Shown one piece after another: positions 1,163 through 35,087 of a stretch of 35,087 bases of DNA; position 1 is the first letter of the stretch; each line of letters begins with the position of its first letter. Source of the DNA: Candidatus Bathyarchaeia archaeon (GTDB lineage: Archaea; Thermoproteota; Bathyarchaeia; Bathyarchaeales; Bathycorpusculaceae). Where the stretch lies: NCBI GenBank assembly GCA_050012255.1, contig JBEKHN010000020.1:1-35087 (forward strand). Reading direction: 5' to 3'. Position numbers and translations under genes: made by a program. The notes beneath the pieces are model-generated. The model did no database searches. It saw nothing but the letters and a program-made list of their open reading frames with translations, and was not told where the DNA came from.

Positions 1163-2500
1163 TTACTTTTTGTTCGGAACATAGCAGTTCTTGACGCCAA
1201 TGACTTCCTCTGCGATTTTACCTACTTTCTTTTTAGCGGTTTCCGAACAGAACACATACAACCGCTTAGGAATAGGAGAAGCAGAGAATGGTGATTCTTC
1301 ACCGATATGTCTGACTGATCCATCATAGTGTTCAATAAGAATAGGTTTTTCTTCCACACCTATATTCTCATCAGGGCGTTCATAGAGCTTGATTTCTGTA
1401 CTCTGCAAATGGACTATCAATTCCTCTGGGTTCAAACCTGCTTTTGAGGCAATTGCATTTTCAAGTTTGTCTATTTCCCCTTGTTTCATCTGCATAAGTC
1501 TCATCCGTTCTCTGTAGTCTGGAATAGCTTCAATGGAAATCGGTATTATGTATGAACGTTTCAGCAGCTTTCTGTTTAGCAAGTTCAAGATAATCTTTCG
1601 TGCTTTATCTCTGGATCTTTTGAGTATGAGGTACTGAATGGAACCATCATCCAAGCTTATGTAGTAGTTCAGGAATTTTCCGAGGTCTTTGTGCAAGTCT
1701 AAAGCGTCCCTATCGAGAACCGATTCATCAACGGCAAATCTCAGAGCACGCAAGAACATATCATCTGCTATCAGACGCGTGTGATGTTCATACACTTGTG
1801 TATGCATCAAGTAACGTGCCATCCGATAACTTTCAACAGCATCTCTTCCCTTCTCGTGTATGCAGAGGTAATTTCTCTTCCCATATCCTTTGACAACGCA
1901 TAAATTGCGCACCACTCTTTCAAAATCAAATATGCCGTATGCGACTCCTGTGTGATAAGAATCACGTCTGAGATAGTCTAGTTTGTCGGCATCTAATGTG
2001 CCGGACAATATTTCGGATCTTACTGTCTCCCTCTCGGATTCAAAGATTTGAGCAAGTTCTCCTGCGAGGTCTCCAAGGTTACGTTTCAATTCCGAGTTAT
2101 TTTCCAGAATCAATTGAGTAGCTTTCTCATGTGAGAAATCTTCTCCGAGCAGATCATTCATGATTTTCTCAAAGACGTGAGAAAAGGGGCCGTGTCCCAG
2201 ATCATGCAGCAGTGCGCCAGCACGGACTAAACGAGTGTCTCTTTCAGGCAACTCCAGTTGTCTGCAAATCCTTCCGGCCACGTACAAAGTGCCTAGAGAG
2301 TGTTCGAATCTGTTGTGTACCGCACTAGGATATACTATATAGGTATGGCCCAATTGCTTTATTCTTGTCAGTCGCTGCAAAATCTTGCAGTTAACAAGGT
2401 TCTTTTCTTGACGAGAAAGGCTAATAAAATCATATAGGGGATCGCGGAAGGACACGATTTCACGAAGAGCATCGCGTTTCTTAATCGCCTTTCTTGGCAA
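1163..2500 (-). CDS. HD-domain phosphohydrolase, SAMHD1/YwfO-like putative dNTP triphosphohydrolase
   Basis: Motifs RIKQLG, HNRFEHSLG, LLHDLGHGPFSH, DADKLDYLRRD. Confidence 0.9.
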   Translation of the reverse strand: MPRKAIKKRDALREIVSFRDPLYDFISLSRQEKNLVNCKILQRLTRIKQLGHTYIVYPSAVHNRFEHSLGTLYVAGRICRQLELPERDTRLVRAGALLHDLGHGPFSHVFEKIMNDLLGEDFSHEKATQLILENNSELKRNLGDLAGELAQIFESERETVRSEILSGTLDADKLDYLRRDSYHTGVAYGIFDFERVVRNLCVVKGYGKRNYLCIHEKGRDAVESYRMARYLMHTQVYEHHTRLIADDMFLRALRFAVDESVLDRDALDLHKDLGKFLNYYISLDDGSIQYLILKRSRDKARKIILNLLNRKLLKRSYIIPISIEAIPDYRERMRLMQMKQGEIDKLENAIASKAGLNPEELIVHLQSTEIKLYERPDENIGVEEKPILIEHYDGSVRHIGEESPFSASPIPKRLYVFCSETAKKKVGKIAEEVIGVKNCYVPNKK

Positions 2501-3020
2501 GGTTCAACGCCGTCAACAGTCTTAGGCCAGATTCGATCTCATTTTCTGCAAGTGTCCAACCAAGTTTTCTTCCGACTCTTTTTATTTCGCCATAGGTGAT
2601 TTCCTTTCCTTTTCGCTGGAGCAAAAAGTAAACTTTAGCTGCCCATGATAGAATGCTTATATTATTACCTGCTGTTGTAGTGCAAGTCTCTACTATCTCT
2701 TTCAAACTCTTGTGTAGTTTTGAATCTTTTTCTTTCAAGTCTTCTGCAATTTTCTCTCCATCTTCTGTCAAAGAATAGCTGTACAAGACTCTGCCGTGAT
2801 AAGTCATTCTTCCTCTTTCGACCAAGAAGTCAGACGTTATCAAATCATTCATAGCACGCGAAATAGCTTCGCTATAAGGTCCGTAGAAATGTGGTTTGTA
2901 CCCTAAGTCCAAGCCAGTTTTGACCGCTGCAAAATAGCACCATTTCTGCAAAGTGGTCCTACCCTCAACAGCTCCTTCAGCAGCATCTACCATTAGGATT
3001 ATTATAGCTGATTCATTCAA
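2481..3020 (-). CDS. YwgA-like (SocA/Panacea-related) protein
   Basis: 'GRTTLQKWCYF...YGPYS...YSLTEDG' signature; overlaps the HD gene start by 20 bp. Confidence 0.75.
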   Translation of the reverse strand: MNESAIIILMVDAAEGAVEGRTTLQKWCYFAAVKTGLDLGYKPHFYGPYSEAISRAMNDLITSDFLVERGRMTYHGRVLYSYSLTEDGEKIAEDLKEKDSKLHKSLKEIVETCTTTAGNNISILSWAAKVYFLLQRKGKEITYGEIKRVGRKLGWTLAENEIESGLRLLTALNLAKKGD

Positions 3021-7641: not shown

Positions 7642-7687
7642 GGTTCTGTTAACTCTTAGGCGCTTAAAGAAGTTTGTTAACTGTCGG
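7642..7687 (-). repeat. 46-bp bipartite module, copy 1
   Basis: Reverse complement CCGACAGTTAACA-N21-GTTAACAGAACC. Confidence 0.85.
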
Positions 7688-7714
7688 CGCTTTTTGTGAT
7701 AGAGCCGCCAGTAC

Positions 7715-7809
7715 GAGCCCATAAGACTTTTCGGAGTTCTAAAACGGGCCCTAATGCAGTTCTGCCAAAAAGGGCTCTCTGCAACTTTTCGAATTCCTAA
7801 AATAGGCCC
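7715..7809. repeat. Array of short units joined at GGGCCC-like cores
   Basis: GAGCCC 7715, GGGCCC 7746, GGGCTC 7772, AGGCCC 7804; the last three are preceded by C(T/C)AAAA. Confidence 0.65.
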
Positions 7810-7818
7810 ATGCAAAAA

Positions 7819-8312
7819 TCATTCATAAGTGCTGGTTCTAAGGTCGTTTAATTGTTTTTCAAAATGTCGGGCAAGTGGATCACCGCTTATGTCTATCTTC
7901 CAAGTATGGGTCGACCTCACTCGCCACTCTGCCATAGCTTCATTCACGGCTTCGTTCAGTTCTTTTTTCCCTAGGCCCGTCACTGTTTGAAAATGGGCAA
8001 CTGCTTTGTCCTACGTGTTCTGCCCATATGCAGTATTAAGTTACAATCTGCGCAGACCACTTCATAGCCAGTAAGTCTTTGTGCATAATCAGACTCATCG
8101 TAAAACCATTTCTCATGGCAGAATAACTCTCCTTTTTTCCTTGAAGCACCACAAATCTCACACCTGTAACTACATCTTTCAAGCTCTCTTTCTCTTATCC
8201 TATTCCAAGTGCTCCCAAAACCTGCACCCTTAGTACGTGCTAATTGAGAAAGGCTTTTTCCCCAAGATTTCAGTGGAACTAAATCGATGTTGTAACAACC
8301 AACCTTTACCAT
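7819..8312 (-). pseudogene. Frameshifted HNH endonuclease
   Basis: CEIC...CHEKW...CADCNLILHMGR; a second frame continues 'VTGLGKKELNEAVNEAMAEWRVRSTHTWKIDIS...YE*' to 7819. Confidence 0.7.
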
Positions 8313-8386
8313 GCGCTTTCAAGCCCATATCATATTTGCCAAAGAATCCTTATTTGATTTTTCTTCTGAAGGTATGACGATTGCAC

Positions 8387-8458
8387 AGAAGATACACGAA
8401 ATATCTGAAGAGACAAGCAAGACGACGAGTGACAGGGGTTCGCCACTAAAAGGGGCCC
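8387..8458 (+). repeat. 72-bp dispersed repeat ending in GGGCCC; inverted copy at 32210-32282
   Basis: 7 mismatches and 1 gap over 73 columns by manual alignment. Confidence 0.9.
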
Positions 8459-8919
8459 TTGTCAAAAATCGGTTGATAAAACTTACATTCTTTGGGTAAG
8501 TGCCCATACCATTCATCATAGTGTTTGCAGGATCAAAGTAGAAGGAAAGAACAAATGGTTGACCCTCATCCAAAGCGCAAGCATAAATGAGACAGATTAG
8601 CCCATGCTGACTCGCAATAGAAAAAACGGGAGTTGAAAATATGTAATTTCGTAACACTATAACTTTTTGTAATTTATCTTGTGATTGTTCTATCTATTTC
8701 TGTACCTATTCACGCTTTTTTGCTGCTTCTCTTGCTCTTTCCACGAATTTTTGGTCTTTGCTTGTTCGCCCAATCCTTTCTGCGGCTTCTTGGGTCATCT
8801 TTGTCTCTTTTGGCAATCTCTCACCTCAAATGTACAAACTGTTCATCAATCCTAAAAACTTTCCCAAATACTCTCAGTAAGAACTCTATAATCATAGTAT
8901 CAACCGATTTTTCACAAGG
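8457..8919. mobile_element. Putative non-autonomous mini-element bounded by 22-bp inverted repeats
   Basis: CCTTGTCAAAAATCGGTTGATA(8457-8478) vs TATCAACCGATTTTTCACAAGG(8898-8919), 21/22 complementary; no transposase. Confidence 0.55.
8706..8816 (-). CDS. 36-aa hydrophilic peptide, SMP/LEA-like
   Basis: MPKETKMTQEAAERIGRTSKDQKFVERAREAAKKRE; TTG start after GAGGTGAG; too short for the ORF track. Confidence 0.6.
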   Translation of the reverse strand: MPKETKMTQEAAERIGRTSKDQKFVERAREAAKKRE

Positions 8920-8949
8920 ACTTTCATCAACCGAGGATTTCACAGAACC
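8904..8949 (+). repeat. 46-bp bipartite module, copy 2 (TTTCA variant)
   Basis: CCGATTTTTCACA-N21-TTTCACAGAACC. Confidence 0.75.
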
Positions 8950-13733: not shown

Positions 13734-14660
13734 TTATGAGGAATTTCTCGGATGTGCTTTAAGGTATTCGCTTAACGCCTTTTTTGTTATGACCCAGTTT
13801 CTGCGGAGTTTGAAGGCTCCTATGCTGCCCTTTCGGGCCAATAGGCTCAAGTATTCTTGTGTGAAGGGCGTGAGTTTGCTCGCTTCGGCCAGAGTCAGTA
13901 TTTCTGCTTCTTTTTCAAACGCAAGAAGGTAGATGTCAAGCGACCTCTCAACACAGGTGGCCACGAAATTTGCGAAAGGAATCAGATTTCCGCTATCTGC
14001 TTCGCTTAATGCTCTCAAATATTTCGGTCGATCTACTTTAAGGAGGACCGTAAACGGATACCCGGTTCTCAATAGAACGACATTCATTAGAAGCCTTGCA
14101 GTTCTGCCATTTCCGTCCAGAAAAGGATGTATGTAGACAAACCTGTGGTGGAAAAAAGCCGCCAGTTCAATCGGCCTTAATTCGTCTGGGTTTTGGCTAA
14201 GCGTCTTCAGAAGCTCGCTCATCATCGATTGGATTTCTTCCGCCGAGGGCGGCATGAAAGTCGCACCCGCAACCCTAACTTGACCACTTCTATACTTGCC
14301 CGCGTTTTGATCATCTATGCCACGCAGGAGAAGTTCATGCACCCTCAAAACATCGTCTTGCCTGATTGATGTTTTCTTTCGAGCGAGCTTCTCCACATAG
14401 TCAATGGCATCCGGATGGTTTCTCGCCTCCAAATGTTCTCTCAGACTTTTTCCACGAACCGTTATTCCCTCTTGAATGACAAGTTGAGTTTCTCTGAGCG
14501 AAAGAGTGTTGCCCTCGATGGCATTAGAGTTGTACGCAAACTCGATTTGCATCTGTTCCCACAGCTTTTTGACAAGCTGAGAAGGCAGGGGGCGAAGTTT
14601 GTCCAGAGCTCTCTTTTTCGAAAATATCCGTGCGTATATCTTAGGTTTCACCATCTGCAT
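13734..14660 (-). CDS. Fic-family protein (class II-like) with C-terminal HTH
   Basis: HPFLDGNGRTAR active site; SNAIEGN inhibitory motif; 'LTLAEASK...QEYLSLLARKG' HTH. Confidence 0.93.
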   Translation of the reverse strand: MQMVKPKIYARIFSKKRALDKLRPLPSQLVKKLWEQMQIEFAYNSNAIEGNTLSLRETQLVIQEGITVRGKSLREHLEARNHPDAIDYVEKLARKKTSIRQDDVLRVHELLLRGIDDQNAGKYRSGQVRVAGATFMPPSAEEIQSMMSELLKTLSQNPDELRPIELAAFFHHRFVYIHPFLDGNGRTARLLMNVVLLRTGYPFTVLLKVDRPKYLRALSEADSGNLIPFANFVATCVERSLDIYLLAFEKEAEILTLAEASKLTPFTQEYLSLLARKGSIGAFKLRRNWVITKKALSEYLKAHPRNSS

Positions 14661-31629: not shown

Positions 31630-31959
31630 TTACAAAACAGAATTCCATACATTCATCGAGTACGTGCCAGGCACTACACAACTCGTAAACCCAGACACAA
31701 TTGTCTTGAAGAATTCTTCCTGTCCATGGAAGGTCCTCTTAAAGAACTTCTCATAGTCCGCTAGGCTCTCAAACTCGCCCATTTCGACATATCCGCCTGT
31801 GTTGCCACCAATCATCTGAGAGAGTAGTTTCCACGATTTTACCTCTTTGCACTTCTCTTTGTTCTTCTTGATGTATGCGACCCATTTCTTCATGAGTGCC
31901 ATGTACTGCTCTTGCTTTTCTGGTTTTATGACATACGTTTCCACAAGGAAAACGGTCAT
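31630..31959 (-). CDS. Hypothetical protein, dimeric alpha/beta-barrel (NIPSNAP-like)
   Basis: 'ETYVIKPEKQEQY...VEMGEFESLADYE'; probable ATG at 31959. Confidence 0.65.
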   Translation of the reverse strand: MTVFLVETYVIKPEKQEQYMALMKKWVAYIKKNKEKCKEVKSWKLLSQMIGGNTGGYVEMGEFESLADYEKFFKRTFHGQEEFFKTIVSGFTSCVVPGTYSMNVWNSVL

Positions 31960-32098
31960 CTTGTCACTCTCTTTTCTTCTAATATGCCATTTCAAGTAGT
32001 ATAAATAATCTCAGAAGTATCTCCCATCATCTGAGTCCGAAGAGTTGCCAGAACCGCGCGCACTAACACTTTTATTTAGGAACCCTTCAGTCTTGGAT

Positions 32099-32172
32099 GG
32101 GTTTCCCGGTTCAATCCAACAAATGCAACTGGTGCCTGTCAGTTTGCTACAGGGTTGGATCATTGGAAACCC
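32099..32172. other. 74-nt three-stem imperfect hairpin
   Basis: GGGTTTCC/GGAAACCC, ATCCAAC/GTTGGAT, GCAACTG/CAGTTTGC nested. Confidence 0.7.
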
Positions 32173-32209
32173 CTCTCTTTCCTTTTGAGGAAATCTGCAA
32201 AACTCGTTA

Positions 32210-32432
32210 GGGCCCTTTTTTAGTGGCGAACTCCTGTTACCCTTCGTCTAGCTTGTCTCTTCAGATATTTCGTGTACCTTCTATGATAAGGCAAGTTTAG
32301 ATTCACCAAAAAATCGGAATTGCGCATAGGGCCCGTTTTAGCAGAACTGCGTTAGGGGTCGGGCAATATAAACGGATTTTTTAGAGCTCATCTGGTTGCG
32401 CATGGTGTTCGGCAGACGAACAGTATGGGCTC
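32210..32432. repeat. Second GGGCCC-core array, including inverted copies of 8387-8458 and 7752-7777
   Basis: Cores at 32210, 32329, 32355, 32384, 32427; three are followed by a T-run then AG. Confidence 0.75.
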
Positions 32433-32633
32433 GTTTTTAGCGCGCGCACCATACAAGATTGCTTATGTAGATTGTAGGCACTAACCTATCAGACCTATAA
32501 GAAACAACGGACATAGATAGACTCGGTAAGAATATGCCAAAGAAAAGAGCACACGCAGGACTCAAGAAGAAGAAGAAACGTCAAGAAACATAATCAACGC
32601 ACCGCGCTAATAGAATGAGAACAATATCGCCTC

Positions 32634-32745
32634 CATCACCCGACAGTTAACACGAAGACGATTCACCCGCTAAGTTACCAGAACCCGACGAGAGGTTCTG
32701 GTGCGTCTTAGGGTGATGGTTCTTCGTGGTGCAAGTCGGGTGATG
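32634..32745. repeat. Back-to-back 46-bp modules (copy 3 at 32640-32685 +, copy 4 at 32694-32739 -) forming a 112-nt hairpin
   Basis: Paired blocks CATCACCCGAC, CACGAAGA, TCACCC, TAAG, ACCAGAACC; 8-nt loop CGACGAGA. Confidence 0.88.
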
Positions 32746-32748
32746 ACA

Positions 32749-33678
32749 TCATTCACTCAAAACAGCCTCGTCTGTACGTTTTGCTAACAGGCTGATTAAT
32801 GAGAGATATTCCAACGTTTTGTACGGGTCTTTTTGTACAATATTCATGTGTGCCTCAGGATTGCGGATTCCTACCAAGATACCCATGAACAGGTGTGCGA
32901 ATCCCTTTTGTTCGTTCATTTCGGACAGATTGGAAAGATTGTTTAAGCAAAGAACAGGTTTCTTTGTTACCCGAAGAGGGTTCCTCGAATATTCCACGCC
33001 GAAAGCTTGATCCATGAGATCAGCATCCTTGGTCGTTGTCAATTTAGATTTGTTTCTAACCTGTCCAAAAAGAGCTTTACAACTTTCAAAGATTGCCTGA
33101 GGATAGTGCCCGTCTTTAAACAATTTCTCGCTATGCTTTCTTACCGTGATATGAAACTTCAGACTGTTGAACAGAGCCCCCAACTCGTTTCTGTCTTCGT
33201 GAATGAGATACATAATGTATTCACTCTGCAAAGAGCGCAGTGTATTAACAAAATCTGGAAAGCGGTGATCGTTGCCTATCTCACTCAAAAGCAGACCTTG
33301 GCTTCTAATGATACCTTCGTAATCTCTTGATGAAAGGTTTCTCCGAAGTTCCTGTATCAGTTGGGATATTTCATCGAACCATGCAAAAACCTTGTCTTTC
33401 TCTTTCTGAACATAATCAAGAGAAAATGAAAACTCCATGTTTGTTTTGAAGATTGTTCCTATAGATTGATTGATGTAACTCTCAATCGATTTTCTATACA
33501 TGCTAATCAGTTCAGAAATGGTTTGCGTGTGTCCTTTTGCTTCATCAAAGTGTCTTTTTCCAATCATTTCGTTTATTTTCAGCGTTGAAGTCAAGGCATG
33601 ATCTCTAAAACTACTGACCTCAACTTCGATGAGTTTAATCTGTGCTTTCCCTATTTTTTGATATTTGGACTCAAACAT
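32749..33678 (-). CDS. TIGR02391-family protein with N-terminal helical extension
   Basis: 'LFKDGHYPQAIFES...DLMDQAF...NEQKGFAHLFMG...GIRNPEAH'. Confidence 0.85.
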   Translation of the reverse strand: MFESKYQKIGKAQIKLIEVEVSSFRDHALTSTLKINEMIGKRHFDEAKGHTQTISELISMYRKSIESYINQSIGTIFKTNMEFSFSLDYVQKEKDKVFAWFDEISQLIQELRRNLSSRDYEGIIRSQGLLLSEIGNDHRFPDFVNTLRSLQSEYIMYLIHEDRNELGALFNSLKFHITVRKHSEKLFKDGHYPQAIFESCKALFGQVRNKSKLTTTKDADLMDQAFGVEYSRNPLRVTKKPVLCLNNLSNLSEMNEQKGFAHLFMGILVGIRNPEAHMNIVQKDPYKTLEYLSLISLLAKRTDEAVLSE

Positions 33679-34142
33679 TCTTTTCTTCTCTCCGTTTCAT
33701 AGATGCAATTCGACCATCTAATGCGATTAGGTATTGTCTTAACTATTTTTCTATTAAGGCAAATGATGAACCAGAAAATCAGAGAGGTATTGCGTTTCCG
33801 TGTGATATTTCCAATGATGATCCTATCTTGTGCATCGTCAGGTGCCTTTTTATTGCTCTTACGAGTGAATCTGCTATATCTTCTGATTTTGACACCGTTG
33901 CTATTCGCCAGTGTTGTTTCTTGCCATGGTTTCTATCGGTTCATGGTTGCCATGGAAGAGGCAAGTTGCCATGCAAAAACTGAACGATGAGGTACACCGC
34001 ATGAAGCATTAGACGGAAAGACTCCTAGTGAGATGTGTGGAATTAAGGTAGAAGGAAAAAACAAATGGCTAACACTAATCCAAAACGCAAGCAAAAAGTA
34101 GTTAAGCCCAGTATATTCAGAACTCTCTTCTGCTGATAAGAA

Positions 34143-34532
34143 ATGGTTTTGTTGATTAAGGACATTAATTGGAAAGAATTGGAAAAAAGAATACTGAAAC
34201 AAGAAAGTTTTGTTGATAAATGTGAACATTTGTGTAAGGAAATATCTCTTGGCAGAATCTCAGACCTCACTCCATCTGGTAAGCCTCGTGATTTTGGTAG
34301 AACCTCTCATGATCCGATTTCCCCAGGCTCATGGGGGCAGTACGTTAAAGCACCAGAATTGCGTTCTCGACCAGTCAAGAAGGATGAACAAGATGATAAT
34401 GATTGGTGGAAAGATTTAACAGAAGAAGCTGAAAAACACGGAATATACATAACGCCCTCAGACGAAGATCGCAAGATTATTGTGGCTGGAATAAAGGTCA
34501 AGAATAGGTCAGAGCCATCACACGACAGTTAA
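34143..34532 (+). CDS. Hypothetical protein
   Basis: 129-aa ATG ORF; its stop codon lies inside module copy 5. Confidence 0.5.
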   Translation: MVLLIKDINWKELEKRILKQESFVDKCEHLCKEISLGRISDLTPSGKPRDFGRTSHDPISPGSWGQYVKAPELRSRPVKKDEQDDNDWWKDLTEEAEKHGIYITPSDEDRKIIVAGIKVKNRSEPSHDS

Positions 34533-34567
34533 CAAGGATTTAAATCCCATGGGAAGTTAACAGAACC
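34522..34567 (+). repeat. 46-bp bipartite module, copy 5
   Basis: ACGACAGTTAACA-N21-GTTAACAGAACC, preceded by CCATCAC as copy 3 is. Confidence 0.85.
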
Positions 34568-34587: not shown

Positions 34588-34791
34588 TTAAGATGACCAA
34601 TTTTTTCTGTTCCATCCTTCCTCTCGCACGGCGAACTTGATGTCTTTTCTTTCTTTGAATTGACGGTTAAGAAAATCTGCTTCGCTTTGGGCTTTCTTTT
34701 TAGTGAGAGAATGCCTTACGATTCTTACGGGACTGATGCCTTGCTTTCTAATCACAACATAGCTGGGTGAAGGATGCCTATGATAACTCAT
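34588..34791 (-). CDS. Small basic hypothetical protein
   Basis: 67-aa ATG ORF converging on module copy 5. Confidence 0.45.
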   Translation of the reverse strand: MSYHRHPSPSYVVIRKQGISPVRIVRHSLTKKKAQSEADFLNRQFKERKDIKFAVREEGWNRKNWSS

Positions 34792-35087
34792 TAAGGATTC
34801 ACAAAAGAAAAATCCAAAAAGCTAAACCATGACAATCAAGTTAACAGTATCCTGAATCCAGCAAGTTAATATACTCCGCTTCCCATCTTGCCAGAAGCAA
34901 AAGTTTTTGCCCAGTAAGACCGAGAAAATCGGGTTCTCCGCTTTTACTTTTTGGCAAAGTAGCTTAAACAGTAAGGAAGTGAAAAACATGCGATATATGC
35001 GAAACAAGAAAGAAATGCAAGAACGAGAGAGAAAAAATGAAATGAATTGCAATATCACGCGGAAAACGCGAAGTAACTAAAATTCCC

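Follow-up and report, generated by a model that had tools for sequence, protein, structure and literature searches.

Two IS6-like insertion sequence ends of different lineages probably meet tip to tip in a long hairpin of a Bathyarchaeia contig

The window analyzed here is a stretch of 35,087 nucleotides from Candidatus Bathyarchaeia archaeon (GenBank assembly GCA_050012255.1, contig JBEKHN010000020.1, positions 1 to 35,087). Near its right end, at 32634–32745, lies one long imperfect hairpin of 112 nt, with the sequence that the original prediction described. Its two arms are 53-bp modules that resemble the terminal inverted repeats (IRs) of insertion sequences (ISs) of the IS6 family, and they face each other across 8 bp beside a TIGR02391 gene. 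The locus holds the following features:

32633–32685, minus strand: left arm (L), the 53-bp IR of an IS6-like element that we call X; tip at 32685, interior leftward; boxes GTAAC and GTTAAC; fits the module pattern and the hidden Markov model (HMM) described below.
32686–32693: spacer CGACGAGA, the 8 bp between the tips and the position of the hairpin loop; its length is that of the target duplication of related elements.
32694–32746, plus strand: right arm (R), a 53-bp IR of another lineage; tip at 32694, interior rightward; boxes GTGCG and GTGCAA; fits the module pattern and the HMM.
32361–32632, minus strand: interior of element X beside the L end, with no long open reading frame (ORF).
32749–33678, minus strand: TIGR02391 (Hypoth_Ymh) gene, 309 aa, on the interior side of the R end.

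The hairpin is most probably two IS6-like ends of different lineages that meet tip to tip, a by-product of transposition and no new kind of site.

We compared the fold of the hairpin with the folds of shuffled sequences. As RNA, the plus strand folded at −60.4 kcal/mol with 44 pairs (z = −9.3 against 200 dinucleotide shuffles, mean −31.3, standard deviation 3.1) and the minus strand at −58.7 kcal/mol (z = −9.5); in both cases, none of 200 shuffles was as stable. With DNA parameters, the single-stranded DNA (ssDNA) hairpin scored −32.5 kcal/mol (z = −7.6), again equaled by none of 200 shuffles. The 112-nt hairpin of the original prediction is thus confirmed, and so is its build from two module variants placed back to back: both arms are 53-bp modules, their GGTTCTG tips face across the 8-bp spacer, and CATCACCC forms the inner side of each module. 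The variable boxes had been described as unpaired, and AGTTAA of the left arm and GTGCAA of the right arm do lie in internal loops of the RNA folds. The loop had been given as 8 nt. This is correct for the ssDNA fold, whose stem closes on CGACGAGA (32686–32693), and incorrect for both RNA folds, which have a loop of 5 or 6 nt at that position. As predicted, 3 nt separate the hairpin from the stop codon (32749–32751, minus strand) of the 309-aa ORF, and on the coding strand the hairpin lies 3′ of this stop.

Rfam had no match in the whole window at the gathering score and none in 32000–33000 at E ≤ 1. A tRNA scan of the window found none, and blastn of 32620–32760 against plasmids and phages gave no matches. 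By eye, no archaeal TATA-like motif was visible in or around the spacer. Two candidate readings of the module were also dropped by eye: a C/D-box small RNA, for which the box order does not fit, and a CRISPR (clustered regularly interspaced short palindromic repeats) repeat, with which the dispersed and inverted copies do not agree.

The module occurs elsewhere in the window. A profile built from the two hairpin arms and the copy at 34515–34567 (repeat family D6) also matched 8899–8949 and 7642–7687. Read from GGTTCTG inward, the five window copies align without gaps (tips at 7642+, 8949−, 32685−, 32694+, and 34567−). None of 100 shuffles matched the five-copy pattern, a circular count because the pattern was written from the same five copies; the independent evidence is the scan of outside genomes.

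For that scan, one pattern from the five window copies, in the degenerate-base code of the International Union of Pure and Applied Chemistry (IUPAC), was searched by exact match in 185,579 species genomes, so the census is biased to these box types. The scan yielded 47 loci, each comprising the DNA within 2 kb on each side of a match, with 49 matches listed and 47 distinct sites (L010 and L011 overlap). Forty-five of the 47 are archaeal: 35 from Bathyarchaeia/Bathyarchaeota metagenome-assembled genomes (MAGs), 8 from Nitrososphaerales, Nitrososphaeraceae, or “Thaumarchaeota,” 1 from Methanoperedens, and 1 from Methanoregula. The remaining two lie in bacterial MAGs (L016, Williamwhitmania; L047, Cyclobacteriaceae) and could stem from transfer between domains or from a binning error; the L016 end adjoins an IS6-type transposase. 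At all 47 sites, similarity starts exactly at GGTTCTG, and the preceding 12–20 bases are unrelated between sites. Thus, the module behaves as the terminus of a mobile element.

An HMM from 51 unique modules found further copies in the window and the loci. Eight inverted pairs with outward-facing tips were examined; in six of them, an exact direct repeat of 8 bp adjoins both tips on the outside:

L004, 824 bp: 8-bp repeat TACGTCAA.
L013 (351–1139), 789 bp: 8-bp repeat GGTTCATG; carries a PaREP1-like ORF.
L025, 1,477 bp: 8-bp repeat TTATCGGA.
L033, 740 bp: 8-bp repeat GAAAAACA.
L039 (589–2051), 1,463 bp: 8-bp repeat ATCAATCA.
L037/L031 (one contig, CAYQMM010000003.1, 151138–156400), 5,263 bp: 8-bp repeat CGACTTCA.

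Over the 60 bases compared in each, the IRs of L037/L031 do not differ. The inverted pairs of L005 and L042 have no 8-bp repeat outside their tips. Pairs flanked by a target duplication have like box types at both ends.

Some of these loci deserve a comment of their own. L037/L031, of which the middle 1.16 kb falls outside the data, encodes an IS6-type transposase together with an Eco57I-like restriction-modification methylase longer than 620 aa; it is an IS that bears a defence gene as cargo. The left end of L039 matches only the outer sub-repeat (HMM positions 1–29), yet the element is flanked by a target duplication, which suggests that an element can move with only the outer half of an IR. 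The duplication of L013, GGTTCATG, looks like the IR tip GGTTCTG; this anecdote hints that transposition may favor targets similar to a tip. Finally, IS ends that share an orientation stand in groups of two or three, 64–700 bp apart, in L003, L006, L007, L008, L010/L011, L017, L020, L043, and L044. In L006 the second tip lies 12 bp past the first IR, and in L043 three ends follow each other at ~500-bp intervals. These arrangements suggest that elements inserted repeatedly into resident ones or next to them.

We asked which transposase accompanies these ends. The loci contain 194 non-overlapping ORFs of at least 100 aa, and the 101 on the interior side of the best module were scanned. PF13610 (DDE_Tnp_IS240) was present in six of these (L016, L024, L029, L030, L037, and L046), and the best NCBIfam model was always the IS6 transposase, NF033587. 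L037 (131.4 bits) and L016 (125.0 bits) reach the 125-bit cut-off of this model; L024 (113.1) and L046 (107.8) are below it. Transposases of the group measure ~380–412 aa. That of L024 (412 aa) has an N-terminal SWIM finger and an InsA-type zinc ribbon, and a PDB sequence search with it gave no matches.

The window itself contains no intact transposase. Its remnant at 33991–34101 shares 24 of 32 residues (75%) with residues 378–409 of the L024 transposase (E = 9e-18), and the DNA there is 83.5% identical to L017. A second, shorter remnant lies at ~8520–8590. The short transposase-like frames of the window gave nothing meaningful in Pfam at E ≤ 10, and the 36-aa remnant had no match in plasmids by tblastn.

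The IR tips point to the same family. Passages of PMC7986276 and PMC6807381 list GG tips, a G at position 7, and a cTGTt motif for IS6 IRs, and give an IS6 target duplication of 8 bp. The tip features GG, G at position 7, and CTGTT are all present here, CTGTT in the commonest module type, and GGTTCTG is invariant or nearly so in 60 modules. The connection that the original prediction drew to IS6 and its 8-bp duplication therefore stands: the modules are IS6-like IRs, and six of eight related pairs have exact duplications. Length is another matter. In the same passages, published IS6 IRs measure 15–20 bp, archaeal ones at least 18 bp, and a single IS6 member with a passenger gene is named. A typical IS6 element is 700–890 bp long, with IRs of 15–20 bp and a single transposase gene. 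The present group does not share this compact layout, so we treat it as a variant and not as a typical member: it is an IS6-like variant with long bipartite IRs and frequent cargo. The literature searched gave no description of this long-IR IS6-like group for these archaea.

Do the two arms of the hairpin belong to one element? L and R match at 36 of 53 positions. L is closer to the solo ends of L008, L015, L026, and L043 (47–49 of 53), and R to the ends of L017 and L021 (49–50 of 53). For L, the likeness continues inward: window 32361–32685 (L and the adjoining 272 bp of interior) shares 96% identity with L043 1727–2051 and 94% with L015 2001–2323, and in both loci the same tip abuts unrelated DNA. 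For R, the likeness to L017 and L021 ends at the inner IR edge. The interiors on the two sides of the junction are unrelated. Since the arms are closer to ends in other genomes than to each other, they did not arise by a local inverted duplication; this one-off event, which had been raised as the scenario that would undo the original prediction, was wrong. Since duplication-flanked pairs have like boxes, L and R are the ends of two different elements.

These comparisons bear on the idea that the junction is the abutted ends of one element (right IR, spacer, left IR), as in a tandem dimer or an integrated circle. Copy-out-paste-in ISs of other families (IS3, IS21, IS30, and IS256) form highly reactive junctions of this kind with a spacer of duplication length, as described in a section of PMC7986276. 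Here too the spacer has the length of the target duplication in two independent cases, and, by our own derivation, an IS circle whose junction measures 8 bp would result from an intramolecular attack in cis on the 8 bp right beside the element. However, the arms are of different lineages and their boxes differ, whereas the two ends of a single duplication-flanked element are alike; the interiors do not match; and the section of PMC7986276 contrasts the IS6 family with the families that make abutted-end circles. We consider a dimer or circle improbable.

We then looked at the internal structure of the IR in 60 unique full-length modules (HMM matches at E < 1e-6 spanning 46 or more profile positions). 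Among the five column pairs with the strongest mutual information, four lie at an offset of 27 (19–46, 20–47, 21–48, and 22–49), figures that are descriptive only and carry no probability, as the modules are related. Columns 9–37 (offset 28) also co-vary. The linked columns carry the same base and not complementary ones (at 19–46, GG in 41 modules and TT in 16), and this covariation was not forced by the scan pattern because columns 15–32 are free in it. Depending on the lineage, the two halves carry GTAAC...GTTAAC, GTGCG...GTGCAA, or TGAAA...TGAAAAA, and GGGTGAT, GGCGCTT, or GGTTGAT also recurs in both halves. Each IR thus reads as two direct sub-repeats ~27 bp apart that change together between lineages. 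Two tandem sites for one sequence-specific protein, presumably the cognate transposase, would produce such a pattern.

The original prediction had gone further and proposed that the hairpin is a complete structured recombination site or guide, similar to attC or to an IS110 bridge RNA, of which lone modules would be half-sites and whose specificity would reside in the unpaired boxes of folded ssDNA or RNA. The very stable fold of both strands (z of −9.3 and −9.5) and the lineage-specific boxes in internal loops are what such a site would show. Yet lone modules are the rule, and with their 8-bp duplications they act as transposon ends complete in themselves; a single 53-bp module, one element end, makes up the functional unit. 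A facing pair occurs in only 1 of the 47 outside loci (L029), where ~20 bp are paired (z = −3.1). The boxes co-vary by identity, as direct repeats inside one arm, and RNAalifold on the 60 lone modules found no pairs and no consensus fold. A Pfam scan of 42 window ORFs found no integrase and no IS110-type transposase, and Rfam was negative as reported above. None of the three parts of this proposal is supported, and we regard a structured site as highly improbable.

How, then, did two unlike ends come to face each other? We searched the window and the loci (217,322 bases) for exact CAGAACC-N(0–200)-GGTTCTG and found three instances, with spacers of 8 (window), 8 (L029), and 111 bp (L042); the CAGAACC of the L042 instance is outside any module. 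The single tip-to-tip pair among the 47 outside loci therefore has a spacer of 8 bp, like that of the window. In L029 (JBEKOM010000001.1, ~86–90 kb), the two partners that face each other are a full IS end, located downstream of a 284-aa ORF and an IS6 transposase gene, and a shorter end type, GGTTCTGTAAACTTATCGGTTGGT, which L021 also contains. This junction makes only a short stem (~20 bp paired, z = −3.1). Under uniform spacing over 0–200 bp, a spacer equal to the duplication length is expected in ~1 of 200 cases.

This last figure also bears on chance as the explanation, in which unrelated insertions and deletions in a region crowded with IS debris happened to leave two ends at this distance. 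At least four IS ends and a transposase remnant are packed into 2.6 kb, 10 of the 47 outside loci (two of which, L010 and L011, overlap) have clusters of same-orientation ends, and no matching duplication was found, all as chance would have it. Against this, the sole other close facing pair in 217 kb also has exactly 8 bp, ~1 in 200 if spacing is uniform. We think that a chance encounter has a low probability.

A tip-to-tip meeting of two elements could come about as follows. The 53-bp IR starts at its tip, GGTTCTG, its two sub-repeats are putative tandem transposase sites, and the group moves with the 8-bp target duplication seen in relatives. At the hairpin, the end of the decayed element X (interior to the left) and an end of the other lineage (interior to the right, on the TIGR02391 side) stand 8 bp apart. 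The exact spacing would be accounted for most simply if one element took the 8 bp beside the tip of the other as its staggered target, either by insertion or by intramolecular replicative deletion. In that case the spacer would represent a single target copy. The legend of Fig. 9 in PMC7986276 depicts such an outcome, in which an IS targets the flank of another IS and leaves two copies separated by that flank. Because the two ends share a common IR design, their juxtaposition reads as a long imperfect palindrome, and their lineage-specific boxes become its internal loops. The hairpin would need no function of its own.

Several points weigh against this account. The 8-bp question was prompted by the window case itself, and L029 is the only independent instance. 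CGACGAGA has no second copy in the window, and CTTTATCA, the spacer of L029, occurs once in 4 kb; as no recopy of the spacer was found, the matching duplication expected at the far end of the incoming element stays a prediction. None of the five full ends in the window has a matched partner or a target duplication. The same holds for limits given above: the bias of the census, the 2-kb reach of the outside loci, the descriptive nature of the mutual information, and the putative role of the sub-repeats. One further explanation belongs here, namely that the palindrome was co-opted as an RNA stabilizer or terminator at the 3′ end of the TIGR02391 transcript. Its start 3 nt past the stop on the coding strand is suggestive. 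However, no T-run follows, the only terminator-like call of the scan is a small stem at 32611–32593, and the R-type ends of L017 and L021 adjoin unrelated ORFs. Such a role is extremely improbable. With these points taken into account, we still hold the meeting of two IS6-like ends to be the probable origin of the hairpin.

The occurrence of the 8-bp spacing in two unrelated genomes raises a more specific and tentative idea, which we think rather unlikely: that it is the footprint of end-targeted transposition or else of abutted-end junctions. In the end-targeted form, the transposase may recognize a resident related tip and make its 8-bp staggered cut right against it. If this is true, the junctions would be a natural record that bears on the unsettled mechanism of IS6/IS26 and would explain the pile-up of cargo-bearing ISs into arrays in Bathyarchaeia and Nitrososphaeria. 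In the literature searched, we found no paper on IS26 with an 8-bp separation.

The remaining IS-related features of the window are:

33991–34101 (frame 33991–34098), plus strand: C-terminal remnant of an IS6-like transposase, 36 codons.
34515–34567, minus strand: module C, an IS6-like end with tip at 34567 and box type TTAAC; 92% identical to the L044 end.
7642–7694, plus strand: module Al, an IS6-like end of TTAAC type with GGCGCTT in both sub-repeats; 94–95% identical to the L006 and L029 ends.
8897–8949, minus strand: module Ar, an IS6-like end of TGAAA / TGAAAAA type; 92% identical to the L020 end.
31996–32055, minus strand: a sixth, shorter IS-end-like sequence with tip GGTTCTG at 32055; adjoins a 121-aa ORF at 31630–31995.

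The sixth end (32055−) aligns with L045 2820+ and with L039 589+, the latter belonging to a pair that has a target duplication. Together, 31996–34567 is a patchwork of IS debris: the sixth end, element X truncated on its left, the R end with the TIGR02391 gene, and, to the right of this gene, the transposase remnant, a 129-aa ORF without a known family, and the C end. We tried R (32694+) and C (34567−) as the two ends of one simple element and rejected this pairing: the box types differ and there is no duplication (CGACGAGA versus AAACATAG). The pairing of Al (7642+) with Ar (8949−) was rejected on the same grounds, different box types and no 8-bp target duplication.

A second patch of IS debris occupies 7642–8949. 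Besides the mismatched TTAAC (7642+) and TGAAA (8949−) ends and the C-terminal transposase remnant at ~8520–8590, it contains a 110-aa cysteine-rich ORF without a family (7980–8312, minus strand) and, at 8457–8478, an inverted copy of the inner sub-repeat of Ar. The two patches share conserved non-coding interior segments: 8384–8459 matches 32209–32285 (inverted, 88% identity) and 7749–7782 matches 32324–32357 (85%). These carry repeated A-run and GGGCCC motifs. The first segment is also present in L043 (91%), L017, and L021, where it lies some hundreds of bp inward of IS ends. Candidate roles are those of a promoter or terminator region and of a small RNA made by the non-autonomous elements.

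Further likenesses lie toward the right edge. Window 34853–35087 is 86–87% identical, in reverse orientation, to the interior beside the IS ends of L022 and L040, and by extrapolation from L022 a further IS end would be expected ~120–170 bp past the edge of the window. Window 34590–34814 has a weak DNA likeness (66.5% over 233 bp) to L017 2545–2775, which belongs to a 110-aa ORF immediately inward of an R-type end; the adjoining part of this same ORF matches the conserved segment 32199–32311. This pattern of likeness illustrates the mosaic nature of these elements.

The 309-aa ORF beside the R end matches PF09509 (Hypoth_Ymh, E = 7e-28) and TIGR02391 (67.6 bits, cut-off 39.45). Its C-terminal domain is HEPN-like, with PADLOC hits to Aga_HEPN (6e-15) and PD-Lambda-3_B (1e-14). 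By its position, this gene is probably cargo of the R-type element. Beside related ends elsewhere we found Mrr-like, GmrSD + HNH, and NOV_C genes, N4/N6 and Eco57I-type methylases, Holliday-resolvase-like nucleases, PaREP1, and a TnpB-like protein.

The rest of the window contains further genes of defence type. At 1163–3020, an HD-domain protein with a weak dGTPase match stands beside a protein that matches the C-terminal part of DarG. A Fic/DOC protein that carries a helix-turn-helix domain (SoFic match, 1.7e-36) is encoded at 13734–14660. The segment 18391–31427 is largely housekeeping: phosphoglycerate kinase, GAPDH, a pyridine nucleotide-disulphide oxidoreductase, glycine-cleavage H protein, an aminotransferase, an epimerase, NAD kinase, and an archaeal-type apgM, together with an 851-aa beta-helix/NosD protein with a dockerin domain. 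These genes, and the 96% match of the X end to a Bathyarchaeota chromosome, suggest that the window stems from Bathyarchaeia.

What do these results mean? The hairpin represents no new class of site, and the attC and bridge-RNA lead needs no follow-up. Of value is the group itself: IS6-like elements with unusually long bipartite IRs, widespread in Bathyarchaeia and Nitrososphaerales MAGs and often carrying cargo that includes defence-type genes (restriction-modification, GmrSD, HEPN-like). The long IRs are a handy marker for the annotation of mobile DNA in such genomes, and a modest, testable clue to target choice by the transposase lies in the recurrent 8-bp tip-to-tip junction.

Comparison with known systems places the hairpin and the elements as follows. 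With attC sites and IS110 bridge RNAs, the hairpin shares an imperfect fold of ~100 nt with unpaired positions, which are explained here by lineage differences between two IRs. Unlike attC, the modules flank IS-like elements and form no cassette array, and no integron integrase was found among the 42 window ORFs scanned. Unlike the IS110/IS1111 bridge RNA, lone modules have no conserved fold, and no IS110-type (DEDD) recombinase was found among the window ORFs scanned. The abutted junctions of IS3, IS21, IS30, IS256, and ISL3 also place tips a few bp apart, at the duplication length, but the tips here come from different lineages and elements.

Mobile insertion cassettes are non-autonomous IS derivatives. 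With these and with miniature inverted-repeat transposable elements (MITEs), L004, L013, L033, and L039 share family IRs, an 8-bp duplication, and the absence of a full transposase, and some such short elements carry one small gene. The 112-nt hairpin is different. A MITE has its IRs at its outer edges and is bounded by a target duplication, whereas the tips of the hairpin point at each other and no duplication flanks it; homology ends at GGTTCTG, on the inner (loop) side of the arms, and outside CATCACCC the element interior continues.

The closest system is the IS6 family (IS26, IS257, and archaeal clades). Relatives of the window elements share its DDE transposase (PF13610, NF033587), its 8-bp target duplication (6 of 8 outside pairs), and its IR tip features. 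They also share the frequent same-orientation end arrays and the frequent loss of target duplications that parts of the IS6 literature describe. Unlike the known members, they have IRs of ~53 bp, made of two sub-repeats 27 bp apart with co-varying boxes, and transposases of ~380–412 aa whose N-terminal parts are of SWIM and zinc-ribbon type, and many of their copies, 471–5,263 bp in length, carry cargo or lack a transposase.

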